A DNA stretch of 64,000 nucleotides, from the NCBI GenBank assembly GCA_002433075.1, contig DJHM01000042.1, positions 2,804 through 66,803 of the forward strand, in the 5' to 3' direction. Below, piece by piece: positions 9,955 through 25,830 of this stretch. Made by a program: the position numbers and the translations under genes. How positions within the stretch are numbered: position 1 is the first letter of the stretch; each line of letters begins with the position of its first letter. The notes under the pieces were generated by a model. That model ran no database searches, was not told the origin of the DNA, and saw nothing but the letters and a program-made list of their open reading frames with translations. The stretch is from Latescibacteria bacterium UBA6620 (GTDB lineage: Bacteria > Latescibacterota > UBA2968).

Positions 9955-10950
9955 ATGGAGATGTATTATGAAAAAGACGCCGATCTCGGGCTCCTGAGCG
10001 ACAAGACCGTGGCCGTCCTCGGCTTCGGGAGCCAAGGACACGCCCACGCGCTCAACCTGCACGACAGCGGTGTCAAGGTCGTCGTCGGCCTGCGCGAAGG
10101 CAGCGCGTCGCGTAAACACGCCTCCGACGAGGGTCTCGAAGTCGTCTCCCCCGCAGACGCGGCGGCCGCAGGCGATATCATCATGGTCCTCGTGCCCGAC
10201 GAGCATCAGCGAACCGTTTTTCAGACCGACATCAAGCCGGGCCTCAAGGCAGGCAATGCCCTTGCATTCGCCCACGGGTTCAACATCCACTACGGTCAGG
10301 TCGTGCCTCCCCCCGACGTCGACGTTTTCATGATCGCCCCCAAGGGCCCGGGACACCTGGTTCGTCGCGTATTCTCCCAGGGCGGAGGTGTCCCCTGCCT
10401 GATCGCCGTCGAGCAGGATGCGACCGGCAAGGCCAAGGAAATCGGGCTCGCCTACGGGAAGGGCATCGGAGGCGCACGCGCGGGGATTATCGAGACCACG
10501 TTCCGCGAAGAGACCGAGACCGACCTGTTCGGAGAACAATCCGTTCTATGCGGCGGCCTGACCGAGCTGATTCGAGCAGGATTCGACACACTCGTCGAAG
10601 CCGGCTACCAACCCGAAATCGCCTACTTCGAGTGCTTGCACGAGGTCAAACTCATCGTAGACCTCATCTACGAGGGCGGCATCGCAAACATGCGGTCTTC
10701 CATCTCAGACACGGCCGAATACGGCGACCTGACCCGAGGACAGCGCATCATCACCGATGAGACCCGCACGGAAATGAAGCGCATTCTGAACGACATCCAA
10801 TCCGGCCAGTTCCCACGGGAGTGGCTCGTTGAGAACCAAGTTGGGCGCCCGCTCTACAACGCCCGCAAGCGCCAGGACCAGGAGCACCTGATCGAGGAAG
10901 TCGGTACGAAACTGAGGGGCATGATGTCCTGGCTGGAACAGGACGGCTAA
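9955..10950 (+). CDS. ilvC: Ketol-acid reductoisomerase.
   Basis: N-terminus [31 protein letters not shown] (NADPH Rossmann fold). Class I length, about 330 aa. Confidence 0.93.
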
Positions 10951-11130
10951 CAGTCCATTAAGACCCGACACAGGCGACGCACTTGAAGGAGGTGAGGCAG
11001 ATGGAATCCGACCTTTCAGACCTTACGGGCACACAGAACAGATTCAACCTCGTACGGCGGGTTGATCGATGTGTGGCAAGGTTCCACCTGCCTGCCCCAT
11101 TCAGCTCCCGAAATCAGGAGTAGCAGACCC

Positions 11131-12681
11131 ATGGATCAGAACACCAAAGACCAGGTCGTCATTTTCGACACCACGTTGAGGGACGCCGAACAAACGCCCG
11201 GATGCTCGCTGACGACGCGTGAAAAACTCGAAATTGCCCATCAGCTGGCGCGTCTGAACGTCGACGTCATTGAGGCCGGTTTCCCCGTTTCGTCGAACGA
11301 AGACTTCGAGGCGGTTAAACGCATCGCGAACGAGGTCGAAGGCCCCCGGATCTGCGGTCTGGCCCGCGCGGTCAGGCTCGACATCGAACGTGCCGGAGAA
11401 GCTCTGGCCGGCGCCCCGAAGACGCGGCTGCATACGTTCATCGGCAGTTCGCCCCAGCATCGTGCCATGATGAGAAAATCGCCTGAGGAAGTCCTCAAAA
11501 TGGCCGTCGATGCCGTCGAGCTTGCCCGGGCTCAATGCGAGAACGTCGAGTTCTCCCCGATGGATGCGGTCCGTACCGAGCCGGATTATCTGTACGAGAT
11601 GGTTGAAGCCACCATCGCCACCGGCGCTACGACGATCAACATTCCGGACACCGTCGGATACGCCGTCCCGGACCAGTTCGGACAGCTCATCGCGGATATC
11701 ATCTCCCACGTGGGGAACGTCGATGACGCGATCATCAGCGTGCACTGTCACGACGACTTGGGGATGGCCGTCTCCAATTCCCTGACCGCCCTGAAGCGCG
11801 GAGCCCGTCAGGCGGAGTGCACGATCAACGGTCTGGGCGAACGCGCGGGCAATGCGTCGCTCGAAGAGATCGTGATGGCCGTCCTCACCCGGGGCGACTA
11901 TTTCGGCATCGCCTGTGATGTCAACCCAAAAGAGATCATCAACACGAGCCGCCTCGTTTCCCGGCTGATGAACGTCAGCGTCCCCCCCAACAAAGCCATC
12001 GTCGGGGCGAACGCGTTCGCGCACAGTTCGGGCATCCACCAGGACGGCGTCCTCAAAAGCCGCGACAACTTCGAAATTATGGCTCCCCAGGATGTCGGTC
12101 TGGAGCAGACACAGATCGTCCTGACGGCGCGTTCGGGTCGCCACGCCCTGCGCCATCGCCTGGAGGAACTGGGCTACGAGCTCTCTCCCGAAGACATCGA
12201 AAAAGCCTACGAGCGGTTCATCGTCGTCGCCGACAAGAAGAAGGAAGTGTTCGACGAGGATCTCATCGCCATCGTCAGCGACGAGCTTACCGACATCCCG
12301 GAAAAATATCACCTCGAGTATATGCACACCGTCAGCGGCACCGGAATGGTCCCCTCCGCCACCATCCGGCTCACCATCGACGGAAACAGCGAGGTGCAGG
12401 AATCCGCCTGGGGTGACGGCCCTGTCGACGCCGCGTACAAGGCGGTCAAGACTGCTGCGGGCACGGAGGCTCGGGTCGAGCAATACGCCATCCAGGCCAT
12501 CACGAGCGGGGCCGAGGCCCTCGGTGAGGTCACAGTGCGACTGAGCGAAGGAGGACGCGCGGCAACCGGCCGGGCCGTGTCGACCGACGTCATCGAGGCG
12601 AGCGTCAAAGCCTACATAGACGGCCTCAACCGGCTGGAGATTCAAGCCGGTATTCAACGCCAGCGCGCCGAGGCCGTGTAG
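11131..12681 (+). CDS. leuA: 2-isopropylmalate synthase.
   Basis: [12 protein letters not shown] and HxH motifs with a C-terminal LeuA regulatory domain. The start is reassigned to the ATG at 11131, which is preceded by caggag. The 537-aa ORF on the opposite strand is rejected. Confidence 0.88.
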
Positions 12682-14106: not shown

Positions 14107-14709
14107 ATGCCTGCTTCTTCCATCAGCCAGGTCGCAGGTCCCGGAATCGCTCTCCGCGGGAGCGACATCGACACGGATCGCATTATCCCGGCGCGTTTCC
14201 TGCGAATGATTACGTTCGACGGACTTGGCGATCACGCCTTTGAAGACGACAGAAAGTCCAACCCAGAACACCCATTCAACGACGGCCGGTTTCGAGACGC
14301 TGCAGTGCTCGTAGCGAACGGCAACTTCGGGTGCGGATCATCCCGCGAACACGCGCCCCAAGCTCTTCAGCGTTGGGGAATCCAGGCGATCGTGGGCGAG
14401 TCGTTCGCGGAGATCTTCCAGGGCAATTGCACGGTAATGGGCATCCCCTGCGTAACCGCATCTTCCGCAGATGTGGCGAAACTCCAGGATGCCGTCGAAG
14501 CCGACCCCTCGCAGCCTCTGGATGTGGACCTAGCGAAGAAGACCGTCACCTGCGGGAACCTGGTCACGCAAGTCGACCTGCCGGAGGGAAACCGCGTGTC
14601 CCTGCTCGAAGGAGCGTGGGATGCGACAGGTATGCTTCTGGAGGGCGCCGACGCTGTCAGGGAGGTGGCGAACAGCCTCCCCTACGCACGCGGATTCGAG
14701 CGGGACTGA
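14107..14709 (+). CDS. leuD: 3-isopropylmalate dehydratase small subunit.
   Basis: About 200-aa aconitase swivel domain with the GDNIDTDRIIPARFL-like motif. Confidence 0.9.
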   Translation: MPASSISQVAGPGIALRGSDIDTDRIIPARFLRMITFDGLGDHAFEDDRKSNPEHPFNDGRFRDAAVLVANGNFGCGSSREHAPQALQRWGIQAIVGESFAEIFQGNCTVMGIPCVTASSADVAKLQDAVEADPSQPLDVDLAKKTVTCGNLVTQVDLPEGNRVSLLEGAWDATGMLLEGADAVREVANSLPYARGFERD

Positions 14710-14798
14710 AACCAGCGATTCATGTGGGACGGAATCCCGCGAATCTTGCGGACTGAATCATCACGAAATCTGTACTAACAGCTTGATCGGAGGAATAC

Positions 14799-15860
14799 GT
14801 GGCGCATCAGATCGGAGTCATTCCCGGGGACGGAACCGGGCCTGAGGTGACCGTCGAAGCCCTCAAGTGCCTGGAGGCGGCTTCGGCGAAGTTCGGGTTC
14901 AAGTACGAGACGACAGAATTCGACTTTGGGGGCGATCGCTACAAACGTACGGGCGAAACCTTGCCCGACGAGGCGCTCGACGACCTCCGTGGGTTCAGGG
15001 CCATTCTGCTCGGAGCCATCGGCCACCCGGACGTCAAGCCAGGCATCCTAGAAAAAGGCATCCTCCTCAAGGCCCGCTTTGCTCTCGATCAGTACATCAA
15101 CCTTCGACCGGTCAAGCTCTACCCCAACGTCGATTGCCCCCTCAAGGACAAGACTCCGGACGATATCGACTTTGTCGTCGTCCGCGAGAATACGGAAGGT
15201 CTTTACGCGGGTGCGGGCGGCTATCTGAAACAGGGAACGCCCGACGAAATCGCCGTCCAGGAATCGATCAACACCCGCAAGGGCGTCGAACGGTGCCTGC
15301 GCTATGCGTTTGAATTGACCCGCAAGCGCGACAAGGAAAAGACCCTCACGCTTTGCGGAAAAACCAATGTCCTCACCTTCGCGTTCGATATGTGGGAACG
15401 GGCCTTCCACGAAATTGGCGACGCCGAATTCCCGGACATCAAGCGGGATTACGCGCACGTCGACGCGACGGTGATGTGGATGGTCAAGAATCCCGAGTGG
15501 TTCGACGTCATTGTGACCGATAATATGTTTGGCGACATCATCACCGACCTGGGGGCGATGGTTCAGGGCGGCATGGGGGTCGCGGCAGGCGGCAACATTA
15601 ACCCCGAAGGCGTATCGATGTTCGAACCCATCGGAGGTTCCGCGCCCAAGTACACGGGCCAGAACGTCATCAACCCCATCGCCTGCATTTCCGCCTGCCA
15701 GATGATGCTTGATACGCTGGGCGAGGCTGAAGCCGCCGCAGCTGTCGAGAAAGCCATTATCGATGTGGTCGGCACCAAGCTGAAAAGCATGTCCGCAGGA
15801 AGAATGGGGTACAGCACGACAGAAGTTGGAGATCTCGTCGCGGAAGCCATCGCATCATAG
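14799..15860 (+). CDS. leuB: 3-isopropylmalate dehydrogenase.
   Basis: Isocitrate/isopropylmalate dehydrogenase family with a GDGTGPEV N-terminus, sited inside the leu operon. GTG start preceded by ggagga. Confidence 0.85.
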
Positions 15861-15915
15861 ACTTGCCGCGAGATCCTACCTGTACATTGAGAGCGAACCA
15901 ATTGGGGGAAAGAAA

Positions 15916-16266
15916 ATGGCCGAAGTGACTGTCTACCACAACGAGCGCTGAAGCAAATCACGCGGCGCGCTGGACATCCTGCGCGAGCGAGGCGTCGAGT
16001 TCGACGTCATCGAATACATCGAGAACCCCGTCGCTGAATCCGACCTGCGCAGGTTTCTCGATTTGCTGTCCGTGGAACCCAAGGAAATGCTGCATTCGGG
16101 CGCTTTCAATGACCTGGGCCGAAACATCGAGGACTACAACACCCCCGACGCACTCGTCGGACTTCTCCTCGAACATCCCGAGGTCATGAACCGCCCCATC
16201 TGTGTGCGCGGCGACTGGGCCGTCATCGCCCGCCCGGCGGAAAGGGTGAACGAAATCCTGGACTGA
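15916..16266 (+). CDS. ArsC/Spx-family thiol reductase with an in-frame TGA at the catalytic-Cys codon. Candidate selenoprotein (Sec12).
   Basis: MAEVTVYHNER-TGA-SKSRGALDILRERGVEFDVIEYIENP... aligns with E. coli ArsC MSNITIYHNPACGTSRNTLEMI. The TGA at 15949-15951 replaces Cys12, and the frame is conserved for a further 104 codons up to the stop at 16266. A GC-rich hairpin begins about 16 nt after the TGA. Confidence 0.6.
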
Positions 16267-16468
16267 TTTGGCCGCGTCTTCATTCATCGCTCCATGGTTG
16301 GCCCGAAGAGAGATCGTCGTATGCATCAGTATTGGACTCGCGGTCATTGCCGTCCTGGGGGTCCTGATCAAAGAAGAGGCAACGTAGACTCTTGCAACGC
16401 GTAATCGACACGAAAACGAGGTGGGATCATCCGGGCGGGGTTTCCTGCCCGGACGCCATTGGACGCGC

Positions 16469-18145
16469 ATGGATCCTTTCGTGCGCTCACTTCTCACTCG
16501 ATCTCAGGAGTATCTGACCGTGTCCGATTACGTACAAATCTACGACTCGACCCTGCGGGATGGCTCGCAGGCCGAAGACATTGCCTTCTCACTCGATGAC
16601 AAGCTCCTCATCACGCAGCGACTCGACGACCTCAGCGTGGACTACGTCGAAGGGGGCTGGCCGAATCCTACCAATCCCAAAGACCTGGAGTATTTCGTCC
16701 GAGCATCCAAGCTCGATCTGTCACACACGCGCATCGCCGCGTTTGGTAGCACGCGAAGGGCCGGGAACTCACCCGAGGAGGACGACACCCTCAACACGCT
16801 TCTGGGCGCCGAGACTGAAGTCGTCACCATCTTCGGGAAGACCTGGGACCTTCACGTCAGGGACGTCCTTCGTGTCGACCTCGACCAGAACGTAGCCCTC
16901 ATCGAAGACTCCGTCGCTTACCTCAAGTCGCATGGTCGCGAAGTCATCTATGACGCCGAGCACTTCTTCGACGGTTACAAGGCCGACCCCGATTACGCGC
17001 TTCGAACGCTCAAAGTAGCGGAGAACGGAGGGGCGGACCGGCTCGTCCTCTGTGACACGAACGGGGGCACAATGCCGGGCGAGCTTCGCGAAATCATTCT
17101 CGCCATCCGGGAAAGCCTGACCGTAGCCTTCGGCGTGCACGCGCACAACGATGCAGGTATGGGGGTCGCCAACAGCGTCATCGCGGTCGAACTCGGGGCC
17201 GGGCACGTCCAGGGCACGTTCAACGGGTACGGAGAACGGTGCGGCAACGCGAACCTTTGCGGCGTGATCCCGAACCTTCAGATCAAGTTGAACAAGCATT
17301 GGAAGGGTGCCGACCGGCTGGGCGATCTCATGGAATTTTCACGCTTCCTGAGCGAGATCGCCAACGTCTACCACGACCACCGTCAGCCCTACGTCGGTGA
17401 GAGTGCGTTCGCCCACAAGGGCGGGGTTCACATCGACGCGATGTACAAGGAGCCCTCTTCTTACGAGCATTGCGAGCCGGAGGTCGTAGGCAATCAACGC
17501 CGCTTTCTTCTGTCCGAGCAGTCCGGCGGAGCCACGGTCGCCGCCAAGCTCGAGGAAGCCAAACTCGACCACCTCATTCCCGGACTCGACAAGCGACACC
17601 CCTCCGTCGTCGAGCTCCTCCAACGAGTCAAGCAGCTCGAAAATGAAGGCTACATGTTCGAGGGTGCCGAGGCTTCCTTCGAGATCCTCGCACGCAAGGC
17701 ACTCGGCTCCTTTACCGACCCGTTCAGGCTGATCGGATTCCGCACCATCAATCGTAAGTCGGACTCCGGCACGGAAGTCGAGGCCATCGTCAAACTCGAA
17801 ATCGACGGACGGCTCTACCACACCGTCGCCGACGGGGACGGACCCGTCAACGCCCTCGACGCCGCCTTGAGACAAGCTCTGGAGAAGGAGTATCCCATCC
17901 TCCACGACGTCCATCTCGAGGACTACAAAGTACGCGTCCTCAGCGGAAGGGACGGAACCGCGGCCAAGGTGCGCGTCCTCATCGAATCGTCGGACGGAAA
18001 ACGGGTGTGGAGTACGATTGGCGTTTCGGAGAACATCATCGACGCCAGCTGGCTGGCCCTCGTCGACAGCCTCAGCTACAAGCTGATGATCGAGGGGAAG
18101 CTGAGGGGAGAAAGCGTCCTGCCGAAGGGCGAAGCCGCGGACTGA
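16469..18145 (+). CDS. cimA: (R)-citramalate synthase (LeuA-related, TIGR00977-like).
   Basis: YDSTLRDGSQAE...VEGGWPNPTNPKDLEYF matches the Geobacter-type CimA/LeuA type 2. It is the second IPMS-family gene in the operon. The start is set at MDPFV. Confidence 0.7.
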   Translation: MDPFVRSLLTRSQEYLTVSDYVQIYDSTLRDGSQAEDIAFSLDDKLLITQRLDDLSVDYVEGGWPNPTNPKDLEYFVRASKLDLSHTRIAAFGSTRRAGNSPEEDDTLNTLLGAETEVVTIFGKTWDLHVRDVLRVDLDQNVALIEDSVAYLKSHGREVIYDAEHFFDGYKADPDYALRTLKVAENGGADRLVLCDTNGGTMPGELREIILAIRESLTVAFGVHAHNDAGMGVANSVIAVELGAGHVQGTFNGYGERCGNANLCGVIPNLQIKLNKHWKGADRLGDLMEFSRFLSEIANVYHDHRQPYVGESAFAHKGGVHIDAMYKEPSSYEHCEPEVVGNQRRFLLSEQSGGATVAAKLEEAKLDHLIPGLDKRHPSVVELLQRVKQLENEGYMFEGAEASFEILARKALGSFTDPFRLIGFRTINRKSDSGTEVEAIVKLEIDGRLYHTVADGDGPVNALDAALRQALEKEYPILHDVHLEDYKVRVLSGRDGTAAKVRVLIESSDGKRVWSTIGVSENIIDASWLALVDSLSYKLMIEGKLRGESVLPKGEAAD

Positions 18146-22688: not shown

Positions 22689-22947
22689 ACCGCGCCGAGC
22701 AAAACGTGAGCCACGCTCCGCCGATTTTGACAGCCGCTTGTCCCCCGTAGTCGTCCATCGTCAGTAAACTCTTGTCAAATATCACCCTTGCGATCCAAGG
22801 TATTTTGCCCGGTCGATCGGGGTGCGCCACACATCGATTTGTGCCTGAAATCGCACAACAAAAAAAGTGACGATAACGATGCTTTTGTGTTACAAGACCT
22901 TATCGCAAAACCCAGCCCTGAGGCCCCTAAAATGCGGAAATAAGTGC

Positions 22948-22976
22948 TTGACGCTCCCTGATCACCCGCTTATATT
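22948..22976 (+). promoter_or_regulatory. Near-consensus sigma70-type promoter (TTGACG, 17-nt spacer, TATATT).
   Basis: -35 ttgacg at 22948-22953, an exactly 17-nt spacer, and -10 tatatt at 22971-22976. It sits inside an AT-rich non-coding island. Confidence 0.5.
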
Positions 22977-22982
22977 CCTACG

Positions 22983-23042
22983 CAACTCGAAGATAGGAAG
23001 TGGCGTATCTCCTTAATATACAAGGAGATAATACGATTTTTT
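22983..23042 (+). ncRNA. Candidate small RNA of about 60 nt, running from a predicted start site to an intrinsic terminator.
   Basis: It lies downstream of the consensus promoter. The hairpin cgtat-ctcctt/aaggag-(at)-atacg (23004-23035) is immediately followed by attttttg. No conserved ORF is present. Confidence 0.3.
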
Positions 23043-23442
23043 GCACCCCAGACCAGCTCAGATGGGTCGGGTGGTATCCAGGAGGATTTTCAGACAAAAT
23101 GGCATTTTCATCCCCCAATAAATTGCGCCAAATTGTCACCCCCCCTGTTTCGGACCCAACCCCCTCTCAGCAGTCGAAGTTCTTCCTGACGTCCTCCCCC
23201 ACGTGGATGTCGTTTCATTTACGGAACCCGATCGATCCTGAAATAACCCGAGCGCCATGCTCGGACCCCTTTGGGCGGAGTTGAGGTAGTTCGCTTCGTG
23301 CGTGCGGTGGAGTCCTATCTCTGTTCGGACAGGACTTGGCGATATTGGGGGAGATAGCGCCAGGTTAACGTCCGTCTAAAACCAGAGTGCCCGATTCCTT
23401 AGATGCATCCCGCACATTTCGAAACGGGTTGCTTCCTCCGCC

Positions 23443-23493
23443 CTCTAAAACAGCGGCGGATGCGCTGAGTCACGCGCATCCGCCGTTTGTGTT
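23443..23493 (-). terminator. Intrinsic terminator for the minus-strand comEC locus. It may act bidirectionally.
   Basis: Perfect 11-bp stem ggcggatgcgc/gcgcatccgcc with loop tgagtcac. On the minus strand it is followed by gctgtttta. Confidence 0.5.
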
Positions 23494-23591
23494 CGTGCAA
23501 GGAAAGGCGTGATCCGGTAATTCCCGTCCCAGACGTCTATCCGGATTGCCCCCGCGAGGTCCGTTCGCTCCACGCGAATCTGCTGCGCTTC

Positions 23592-25830
23592 TTACCGCAG
23601 AACGACTTCCGGCGAGGGGTGCTTGAACTTGTTGTCGGTCCCGCACGAAATCAGGGCCACCTCAGGCCGAACCGCGCTCAGAAACTTGGCCGATGACGAA
23701 GTTCGGGACCCGTGGTGGGTCACCTTAAGGATTTCGGATTGCGCCCTGGCTACCCAGGCCGCGACGACAGAATCTGTTTCGTGTTCGGTGTCTCCCGTCA
23801 GCAGGATGCTCTGATTACCTCTCTGTAGACCCAATACCACAAATCCGTTGTTCCTACCAACCGGCGCCGGCCCCTCGAGGTTTACGAAGGAAGATGTCGG
23901 TAACAGGACCACACCCTCCCAAACCCGAAAGCGAGTCCCCTGCAGCCACCGCAACGTGTTCGACCCCCCGCTCTTCGATCACATCCCATATCCGCTGGGC
24001 CATCCAGGAATCGTACGGCTGCCCGGGATCGATGAAGGTCCCGACCTCCGTGTGTTCGAGGACCGTGATCAGCCCTCCGATATGATCGCTGTGTGGGTGG
24101 GAGGCCACCATAACATCCAGCCGACTCACCCCTGCCTGACGTAGAAACGGAAACACGACACGCTCGCCCGCGTCCTGCCAGTTTGTTCGTGGCCCACAGT
24201 CCACGAGCATCGTCTTTCCGTTCTGAAACCTCAGAAAGATCGCGTCGCCCTGTCCCACATCCAGAACGTGCATCTCCAGTCGGTCTTCACGCCCGAGAAT
24301 ACCGCCCCACGTCTGAGCATTCAGGGCGATCAGTCCCCCGCAGAGGGGAAGCCACCCATATCGGCGACGGACTTCATCGGAAATCAGCAAGCAGACATAG
24401 GCCATCGTCAGCCACGAACTCAATGCGGGGAGGTCAACGTTGCCCAGGTGGGAGAAGCAGCCAGCTTCGTCAGCCACAGCCCCGAGGACAAAAACACCCA
24501 ACTCGCTCCGTTCAGAACCGTGCCCAGCCCAGCCGAGAAGGTCCCACCAACCACGGCCATCAGACCGAGTCCGGTCGCAGCACCGAAAAGCGGCACCACA
24601 ACGAGGTTAGCCGCCAAGTCAACGATGGAAACCGCGCCGAATACGCTTCATAAGGATCGGCATCGTCCCGACCTGAGACGCGACCGACACGACGAGGGGA
24701 TCCAGGAGCACTCGACCGACCGTTCAGTCCTTCGTGGGAAAGACATTTCGTATCGGCTTGTAGAACAGCAGGATGACCCCCGTCGCACCGAACGAGAGTT
24801 GGAAACCCACGTCGAAAAGATGGCCCGGGCGCCAGGCAAGAAGTACGAAAGCCGCGAACCCCAGCCCGTTCAGTGCGTTACCCTCCCGATCGATCAGTCC
24901 ACCGCCAAGGACTGTCGTGGCCATGGTCGCCGCGCGTACCACCGATGCGAATCCACCCGTCACCACCGCATAGGCCCACACCAGACCGAGAGTCAGACAA
25001 CCCGTGAGTCGACGGCCACACCCGACCACCCGAAGTAGGAAAAAGGCGCCCGCCCCGATCAATCCCACGTGCAGCCCTCAGACCGCCAGTACGTGGGCGA
25101 CACCCGCTCGCGTGAACGCCGACCTGACCTCTTCGGCCAGGTCGCTGCGGTCCCCCAGCAACACCCCCTGCAACACGGCTGCGGGATCCTCACTCAGGTG
25201 CCGTCAGATACAGGCCCGAATGTGACGACGCATTGCTCCGATCGACCGTGCTGAATAGGCTCCGCCCTGGCTACTCTCGAGGACAGCGATCTGGCTGGGC
25301 CGCCGCACACCTGCGATGCGATCTATACCGCGAGGTCGGAGGTATCTGGCGTAATCGAACGCTCCAGCGTTCCGTGGAGGACTCGGGTTCTCGAGGGAGG
25401 TGTCAACCCGGACCCGATCTCCAGGGCGCAGGTCGGGAACGAAATCCCGGAACTGCACGAGGACCGTCCCTCTCGCGGGGATCCCGGCTGCAGATCGCAA
25501 GGCGGTGCCCACCCTCGAACCTTTCGGCCGGCGCTCCGGCGCCGTCTGTACGATGCCACTGAAGACGGTCACATCGCGATTCGTCACGTCCGGCGCAGGG
25601 TCCAGGGTGCTCTGGTGACCGCGCAGGATCCCGCAGAGAACGATGAGCACCGTCACGCACGTGGACCAGAGCCCACGCCGACCGTACCGAACCCCTGCGA
25701 CGACCAGGCACCAACACCCGGCCACCCAGCAGAACAGCGCGAACGGAGCGGGATCGATTCACTGGCCGATGAACACACCCGTTCCCAGAAACAGGGCGGC
25801 AGTCAAAGCGGGACACCTCATCGCACATAC
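23592..25830 (-). pseudogene. comEC: ComEC/Rec2 DNA-internalisation competence protein, disrupted by an in-frame stop and several frameshifts.
   Basis: The full ComEC protein is split across at least five ORF fragments. The N-terminal piece is interrupted by an in-frame TGA (MRCPALTAALFLGTGVFIGQ*IDPAPF...). Then come the DUF4131 region (25204..25725), the competence domain (24724..25068 and 24420..24617) and the MBL domain (23854..24501, HPHSDH; and 23592..23954). The fragments lie in different frames. Confidence 0.6.

Follow-up and report, generated by a model that had tools for sequence, protein, structure and literature searches.

The locus described here raises the question of whether an in-frame stop codon that falls exactly on the catalytic position of a small reductase gene marks a gene that has been lost, or whether this codon is read as an amino acid. 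The gene in question, termed Sec arsC in the following, lies on a 64-kb stretch of DNA from Latescibacteria bacterium UBA6620 (64,000 nucleotides; positions 2,804 to 66,803 of contig DJHM01000042.1, assembly GCA_002433075.1), which is referred to in its entirety as the window. Codon 12 of the gene is TGA in the spelling of the DNA and UGA in that of the mRNA, and a sequence-only reading of the window had proposed a candidate selenoprotein on account of its position. Comparison with homologues from genomes and metagenomes suggests that this UGA is very probably decoded as selenocysteine (Sec). The features of the gene are the following:

15904-15909, + strand: Shine-Dalgarno-like GGGGGA, 6 nt 5' of ATG 15916, read from the sequence and putative in its role
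15916-16266, + strand: Sec arsC coding sequence for a 116-residue ArsC/YfgD-type reductase with predicted Sec at codon 12 (PF03960, TIGR00014, PDB 1I9D)
15949-15951, + strand: in-frame UGA, aligned with the catalytic Cys12 of R773 ArsC and forming the first position of U-S-K-S (UxxS)

Translation of 15916-16266 on the forward strand yields 116 codons with a single internal stop, namely TGA 15949-15951 at codon 12, and ends at TGA 16264-16266 (MAEVTVYHNER*SKSRGALDILRERGVEFDVIEYIENP...VNEILD*, asterisks denoting stops); the 104 further codons that the sequence-only reading had counted beyond the internal TGA agree with this translation. For all profile and structure comparisons, cysteine was substituted at codon 12. 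The Pfam family ArsC (PF03960) is matched with E=1.2e-8 and 35.6 bits against a gathering score of 24, and the best match among the NCBIfam models is TIGR00014 (arsC, arsenate reductase of the glutaredoxin type), which is covered from end to end at 93.4 bits, below its cutoff of 106.05, while NF007456 is not reached (64 versus 242). Solved structures of R773 ArsC, for instance 1I9D, match residues 1-115 with E=2e-16 and place codon 12 opposite Cys12. Both the end-to-end relationship with ArsC proteins and the coincidence of the TGA with the nucleophilic Cys12, as originally proposed, agree with these matches. The active site reads U12-S13-K14-S15, and every Sec homologue features U-[SG]-[KQN]-S. 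Moreover, R93 and R106 correspond to Arg94 and Arg107 of R773 ArsC, and Ser15 is kept as well; of the set Cys12/Arg60/Arg94/Arg107, Sec12, R93 and R106 are present, but H60 stands at the position of Arg60. With high confidence, the gene encodes a reductase of 116 residues with a thioredoxin fold, which belongs to the glutaredoxin-coupled ArsC/YfgD branch of the ArsC family and in which Sec would substitute for the nucleophilic Cys12. With the ArsC proteins of R773 and E. coli (1I9D, 1J9B), it shares homology over the full length at about 34% identity, the two arginines and the active-site loop Y-H-N-x-x-C/U-x-x-S-R. It differs from R773 ArsC by Sec in place of Cys12, His in place of Arg60 and a C-terminus that is about 25 residues shorter, as well as by the location of its gene outside of an ars operon and by a score below the trusted cutoff of TIGR00014.

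The window gene is an unannotated member of a known, bioinformatically defined selenoprotein family. In the 2005 Sargasso Sea study, 'Arsenate reductase' is presented as a new selenoprotein family with 14 sequences (Zhang, Fomenko and Gladyshev, PMC1088965), and a UxxS ArsC selenoprotein family also appears in the Global Ocean Sampling analysis (PMC2398784). Reviews of 2022 and 2026 retain this family (COG1393, TIGR00014, pfam03960) with the motif UxxS (PMC9312934, PMC13188914), and the review exemplar of 'Arsenate reductase (ArsC) 1' is MBT3519430.1. When compared by domain and motif, the window gene resembles the family in its assignment to PF03960/COG1393/TIGR00014, in Sec at the catalytic Cys, in the U-S-K-S motif, in its marine metagenomic origin and in having Cys homologues that are far commoner; nothing essential sets it apart, the window locus being merely unannotated.

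The conservation of the UGA was assessed in two sets of homologues, of which the first comprised 80 species-representative genomes with a readable motif and the second 78 metagenome contigs of the Joint Genome Institute (JGI) from an independent scan. Codon 12 is TGA in 32 of the 80 genomes and TGC or TGT in the other 48, and the metagenome contigs carry TGA in 42 and a Cys codon in 36 cases. Pooling of both sets yields 74 TGA forms and 84 Cys forms (TGC/TGT), the latter in more distant homologues, and this answers the call of the sequence-only reading for an alignment that would reveal TGA or TGC at this codon. Genomes with TGA include those of Latescibacterota, Gemmatimonadota, Binatia, Gammaproteobacteria and Thermodesulfobacteriota, along with metagenome-assembled genomes labelled as Acidobacteriaceae. 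The 74 TGA homologues share 45-83% protein identity, stem from several phyla and at least three gene neighbourhoods, and have intact reading frames with conservation on both flanks of the codon. Among them are a gene on an 8.4-Mb contig (L001), which has 83% identity and a leu-operon synteny like that of the window, and one on a 4.7-Mb contig (L002) in an unrelated gene context. In a search of 5.8 billion proteins, the nearest relatives (60-83% identity) are mostly N-terminal truncations of 98 aa that begin just after the TGA, and full-length relatives at 50-59% identity carry Cys. Furthermore, the 351-nt gene including its TGA is identical in a TARA Oceans scaffold, in GCA_002720695.1 and in GCA_002346595.1, and hence the TGA is not a sequencing error; the last of these assemblies differs from the window by 1.4% over the surrounding 13.5 kb.

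Constraint on the codons upstream of the TGA is equally apparent. The Y-H-N motif is invariant in the protein and varies synonymously in the DNA, with Tyr encoded by TAT in 18 and TAC in 14 and Asn by AAC in 21 and AAT in 11 of the Sec forms, and the 11 codons 5' of the TGA differ between the window and L001 by four synonymous and two non-synonymous changes. Since these codons are constrained at the protein level and vary synonymously, translation appears to cross the TGA. The His codon of the same motif (window 15937-15939, four codons before the UGA) is CAC in 32 of 32 Sec forms, and Cys forms use CAC in 35 and CAT in 12 cases; this bias may mean that the sequence context upstream of the UGA influences recoding, or it may be due to chance together with common ancestry.

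Apart from the codon itself, the TGA forms are distinguished by RNA structure downstream of it, which consists of two adjacent elements:

15961-15989, + strand: hairpin 1, a predicted fold with its loop at 15974-15977; numbered from the U of UGA, it occupies nt 13-41
15991-16008, + strand: hairpin 2, GGCGUCG-AGUU-CGACGUC, overlapping the codons for G-V-E-F-D-V; its tetraloop AGUU occupies 15998-16001 (nt 50-53, numbered likewise)

Hairpin 2, which is located 43-60 nt past the U of UGA, is the conserved element. Its core ACGUCG-AGUU-CGACGU corresponds to window positions 15992-16007, and the stem comprises 7 bp if taken as 15991-16008. An RNAalifold consensus of 26 distinct Sec forms, which covered the region from 12 nt 5' of the UGA to 75 nt past its first base, retains only one helix, columns 56-61 pairing with 66-71, that is nt 44-49 with 54-59. 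Within this helix, none of the pairs is broken in the 26 sequences, and all 15 changes preserve pairing as wobbles. In addition, codons +14 to +17 (xxC GTC GAG TTC) do not vary at all in their third positions (entropy 0), compared with 0.9-1.8 bits at the flanking conserved Y, I, E, P, S and A. The six pairs of hairpin 2 are intact in all 74 Sec forms (32 from genomes and 42 from metagenomes) versus 6 of 84 Cys forms, and the exact core CGTCGAGTTCG occurs in 72 of the 74 Sec forms and in 0 of the 84 Cys forms. In the remaining two Sec forms (L119 and L121), the stem is preserved and the loop reads CGUG instead of AGUU, with GU retained at loop positions 2-3. An 11-nt core, CGUCGAGUUCG, is common to lineages labelled as at least five phyla. 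The V-E-F-D-V peptide of Sec forms is largely a by-product of this RNA element, and, within the presumed selenocysteine insertion sequence (SECIS), hairpin 2 is the most plausible binding site of SelB.

Several Cys forms close to the Sec clades deserve mention of their own. One TGC form (L089, 1501-1857) has an intact hairpin 2, and four metagenome loci with TGC or TGT (L112, L117, L118 and L127) are near-Sec Cys forms with the loop AGCA or CCUG or with a G-U pair in the stem. These five loci look like recent switches from Sec to Cys with a decaying SECIS.

Hairpin 1, in turn, is formed by the pairs C15966-G15985 to C15970-G15981, the inner pairs G15972-C15979 and G15973-C15978, and outer pairing of 15961-15963 with 15987-15989. 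The 62-nt segment folds with -27 kcal/mol (z=-1.95), a value equalled by 9 of 200 shuffles, and the single-sequence fold of this region is weakly above chance. Both sequence and pairing register of hairpin 1 differ between clades, with 67-68% of alignment cells paired in either register; models with a single register were rejected, as neither of the two tested holds across clades. Nevertheless, the region separates the two forms of the gene: the mean folding energy of nt 10-43 is -13.7 kcal/mol (z=-1.9) across 55 distinct Sec forms and -7.75 kcal/mol (z=0.0) across 82 Cys forms, and after adjustment for G+C content hairpin 1 regions of Sec forms are about 5 kcal/mol more stable, with a Mann-Whitney p=2e-13 that ignores relatedness. 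Hairpin 1 lies at the usual distance of a bacterial SECIS from the UGA and has an unconserved loop. The GC-rich hairpin that the sequence-only reading had pointed out shortly after the UGA hence does exist, at 15961-15989, and is more stable in TGA forms, but it is not the conserved element; it belongs, loosely, to the recoding signal as its less conserved half.

The conservation of the UGA, the constraint on both of its flanks, the presence of Cys in distant homologues and the RNA structure specific to TGA forms together favour Sec over a recent nonsense mutation, as had been suspected from the window alone. The decoding process can be envisaged as follows. Translation would start at ATG 15916. 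At the UGA, the complex of SelB, GTP and Sec-tRNA(Sec), tethered to the downstream mRNA structure, would prevail over release factor 2 and thus permit insertion of Sec, whereupon translation would continue as far as TGA 16264-16266, the ordinary stop. The signal for recoding would comprise the variable hairpin 1 (15961-15989) and the near-invariant hairpin 2 (15991-16008). In the resulting enzyme, the selenolate of the U-x-x-S site would reduce arsenate, a similar oxyanion or a disulfide, with glutathione and glutaredoxin presumably serving as reductant.

With the recoding element of E. coli fdhF, hairpin 2 has in common that it is a stem-loop within the coding sequence, 3' to the UGA, with a stem of 6-7 bp and an NGUN tetraloop (AGUU here, GGUC in fdhF). 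On the other hand, the loop GGUC of fdhF, whose UGA is codon 140, occupies nt 22-25, whereas the loop of hairpin 2 is found at nt 50-53; the separate 29-nt hairpin 1 fills the gap before hairpin 2, which is also devoid of a bulged U. The minimal element of E. coli features an 11-nt spacing. If hairpin 1 were looped out, about 10 unpaired nt would lie between the UGA and hairpin 2, which is near this value. It is conceivable, albeit rather doubtful, that the recoding signal constitutes a bipartite, atypical SECIS, in which the NGUN hairpin 2 would bind SelB about 28 nt farther from the UGA than in fdhF and hairpin 1 would bridge the distance as a folded spacer.

A number of observations weigh against decoding as Sec or against the signal proposed for it. 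Neither selA, selB, selD nor a gene for tRNA-Sec was found in the 64-kb window or in about 170 homologue loci; ARAGORN detected no tRNA-Sec in the window or the 32 Sec-form loci, and tblastn with E. coli SelA, SelB and SelD (NC_000913) against the window and the homologue loci collected by then gave only a weak SelB match of 25% identity (L014). Rfam returned no match for the whole window at gathering thresholds, and at permissive E-values only two chance-level fragments of long non-coding RNAs for the locus. The changes within hairpin 2 are one-sided, and compensatory double changes are missing. Moreover, both the Sec and the Cys sets are phylogenetically structured, so that their counts do not represent independent events, and no member of the family has been experimentally characterised (PMC13188914). 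The SECIS hairpin generally has a stem of 6-8 bp and, about 20 nt 3' of the UGA, a conserved G in its loop (PMC4605307), and with its loop G at nt 51 hairpin 2 would be of atypical geometry if it is the SelB site; according to reviews, a fraction of the known bacterial selenoprotein genes has a SECIS outside of the bSECISearch model. A screen of the window for other TGA-interrupted open reading frames (ORFs), based on the G+C content of third codon positions, was dominated by off-frame ORFs and missed Sec arsC itself at the thresholds used.

The alternative that survives best concerns the substrate alone and overlaps with the explanation preferred here, as it accepts a genuine selenoprotein: instead of an arsenate reductase, the gene would encode a housekeeping selenol/thiol oxidoreductase similar to YfgD, which would act on a disulfide, a mixed disulfide or another oxyanion. 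Identity of the protein is slightly higher to E. coli YfgD (38%) than to E. coli ArsC (34%). YfgD, an uncharacterised 'putative oxidoreductase', further resembles the window protein in its length (119 versus 116 aa), its C-S-K-S-R site and a housekeeping context unrelated to arsenic, but it has Cys at the catalytic position and Arg at that of Arg60, and its own neighbourhood (hda, DUF2069, FMN_red) is encountered beside Cys forms only, those from Gammaproteobacteria. The score below the TIGR00014 cutoff and the replacement of Arg60 by a His that is invariant in the window clade speak against arsenate as the substrate, as does the finding that arsR, arsB or ACR3 is not adjacent to a Sec form in any clade examined; instead, Sec forms were encountered in the leu/ilv operon, beside a MiaB-like radical SAM protein together with an M20 peptidase, and beside sulfatases. 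The clade also possesses an extra invariant cysteine, Cys96. These points are opposed by the retention of Cys12 (as Sec), Ser15, Arg94 and Arg107, by Arg60 being kept in Binatia-type Sec forms, and by arsenate reductases being the best structural and profile matches. Judged from these sequence features, arsenate reduction is plausible, and a YfgD-like housekeeping redox role is a serious alternative, which is credited with a somewhat less than even chance.

The additional cysteine is of interest in its own right. Cys96 (window 16201-16203) is situated in the motif R-P-[IV]-C, two residues past the conserved Arg-Pro, and is invariant in the window clade. It is also found in Cys-form relatives of the clade (P0013 and P0023), and neither in Binatia-type Sec forms nor in R773 ArsC. 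It might be a candidate resolving cysteine.

A second alternative holds that the UGA terminates a short upstream peptide and that the real product is N-terminally truncated, starts downstream and is without the catalytic residue. Such products are indeed what databases mostly contain, as most homologues are annotated with 98 aa and a start at the M or L of (M/L)(D/E)IL. In the window, however, this start codon would be CTG, which is not a usual one, and the next in-frame start would leave 67 aa. The 11 codons before the TGA are constrained at the amino acid level with synonymous variation, the Shine-Dalgarno-like GGGGGA precedes ATG 15916, and the truncated product would be devoid of strand 1 and of the entire active-site loop. 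Only a slim chance is hence left for this explanation, in comparison with translation through the UGA.

Still less can be said for a pseudogene, in which an ordinary arsC of the Cys type would only recently have acquired the TGA as a nonsense codon and would no longer yield a functional protein. Public annotations of the contig would be in line with it, since the gene is either absent from them, reduced to a 59-aa fragment or supplanted by an antisense ORF. This stands against a TGA shared by 74 homologues of 45-83% identity with intact frames in at least three neighbourhoods, against a gene that is identical in assemblies differing by 1.4% elsewhere in the locus, and against the conservation of a hairpin specific to TGA forms. 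The sequence-only reading had named close orthologues with Cys and without a SECIS-like structure as the sign of a pseudogene, and the outcome of this comparison likewise speaks against one. The comparative data effectively refute this explanation, to which hardly any probability is assigned.

The same reading had stated that TGA is an ordinary stop elsewhere in the window, and this is confirmed by its use at the end of 32 of 60 long window ORFs, among them leuD, cimA and argJ, which makes it the commonest stop. An alternative code or general read-through, by which a normal or suppressor tRNA would insert Trp, Gly or Cys at UGA, can likewise be dismissed as extremely improbable, since the W at codon 12 of one database protein that runs past the normal stop (P0001) reflects another code table used by the gene caller, TGA also terminates Sec arsC itself, homologues end at TGA or TAA immediately past ...EILD, and a generic reassignment would need no conserved downstream hairpin.

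Sec arsC is flanked by genes of branched-chain amino acid biosynthesis:

14799-15860, + strand: leuB (3-isopropylmalate dehydrogenase), NF002898 with 527 bits versus a cutoff of 393, Iso_dh, ending 55 nt 5' of Sec arsC
16421-18145, + strand: cimA (citramalate synthase), TIGR00977 with 698 bits versus a cutoff of 450, with public starts at 16469 or 16520

The matches to NF002898 and TIGR00977 agree with the placement between leuB and cimA that had been remarked upon earlier. Between 9433 and 22688 of the window, the gene order is ilvN-ilvC-leuA-leuC-leuD-leuB-[Sec arsC]-cimA-aminotransferase-argJ, and the segment from leuC/leuD to just past cimA, including Sec arsC, is common to four species-level genomes (the window, L001, L009 and L012) with 67-83% ArsC identity. 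Other Sec forms reside beside a MiaB-like radical SAM protein, an M20 peptidase and UvrD in Binatia or beside sulfatases in other Latescibacterota. A scan of 14700-16700 for promoters and terminators found nothing, a result that would fit transcription together with the leu genes without being evidence for it. The gene for a predicted redox selenoprotein keeps its place inside a branched-chain amino acid operon, between leuB and cimA, in four species. A small hydrophobic ORF at 16268-16390 (+ strand; 40 aa, LAASSFIAPWLARREIVVCISIGLAVIAVLGVLIKEEAT) was considered as a further gene and rejected as probably due to chance, given that it has no conserved counterpart in the syntenic loci.

None of the public annotations of the contig that were examined contains the complete gene, which is either lacking, called in truncated form or supplanted by an antisense ORF. 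The antisense ORF extends over 15958-16497 (- strand) and is called as 15958-16347 (- strand), with 129 aa and no Pfam match, in L085 and L087, and the annotation of GCA_002720695.1 contains a 59-aa ArsC fragment only. Most probably, this antisense call arose because the recoding of the UGA was overlooked.

Further observations concern other parts of the window and of its closest complete relative. At 23425-24720 (- strand), for which the ORF list contains short ORFs only, the window carries a homologue of a 443-aa ComEC-like protein of L001 (Competence and Lactamase_B) in five aligned pieces with small gaps and overlaps; in the window this gene is disrupted, be it because it is a pseudogene or because of assembly consensus errors. 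The adjacent 22689-23424 (about 740 nt) contains no notable ORF and has no Rfam match, and the ORF-poor gap 22689-23591 has a G+C content of 0.54 versus 0.60 for the window. In L001, the cimA homologue (10774-12133) is split into ORFs of 345 aa and 70 aa, which is a probable frameshift or long-read assembly error.

With respect to the recoding signal, an invariant and unusually distal NGUN hairpin across phyla is possibly new, although it may partly be in the literature already. If the bipartite signal is real, either very different SelB proteins would read one and the same hairpin, or gene and signal would have moved horizontally together. The UxxS ArsC family may be useful as a test case for the maximum distance between a bacterial SECIS and its UGA, and the Sec-specific RNA signature present in 74 of 74 Sec forms could be turned into a search model. 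Such genes are missed by gene callers, and the nearest database entries are mostly truncated and without the catalytic residue. For the organisms themselves, the locus adds a well-supported example of how uncultured marine lineages near Latescibacterota and Gemmatimonadota make use of selenium.

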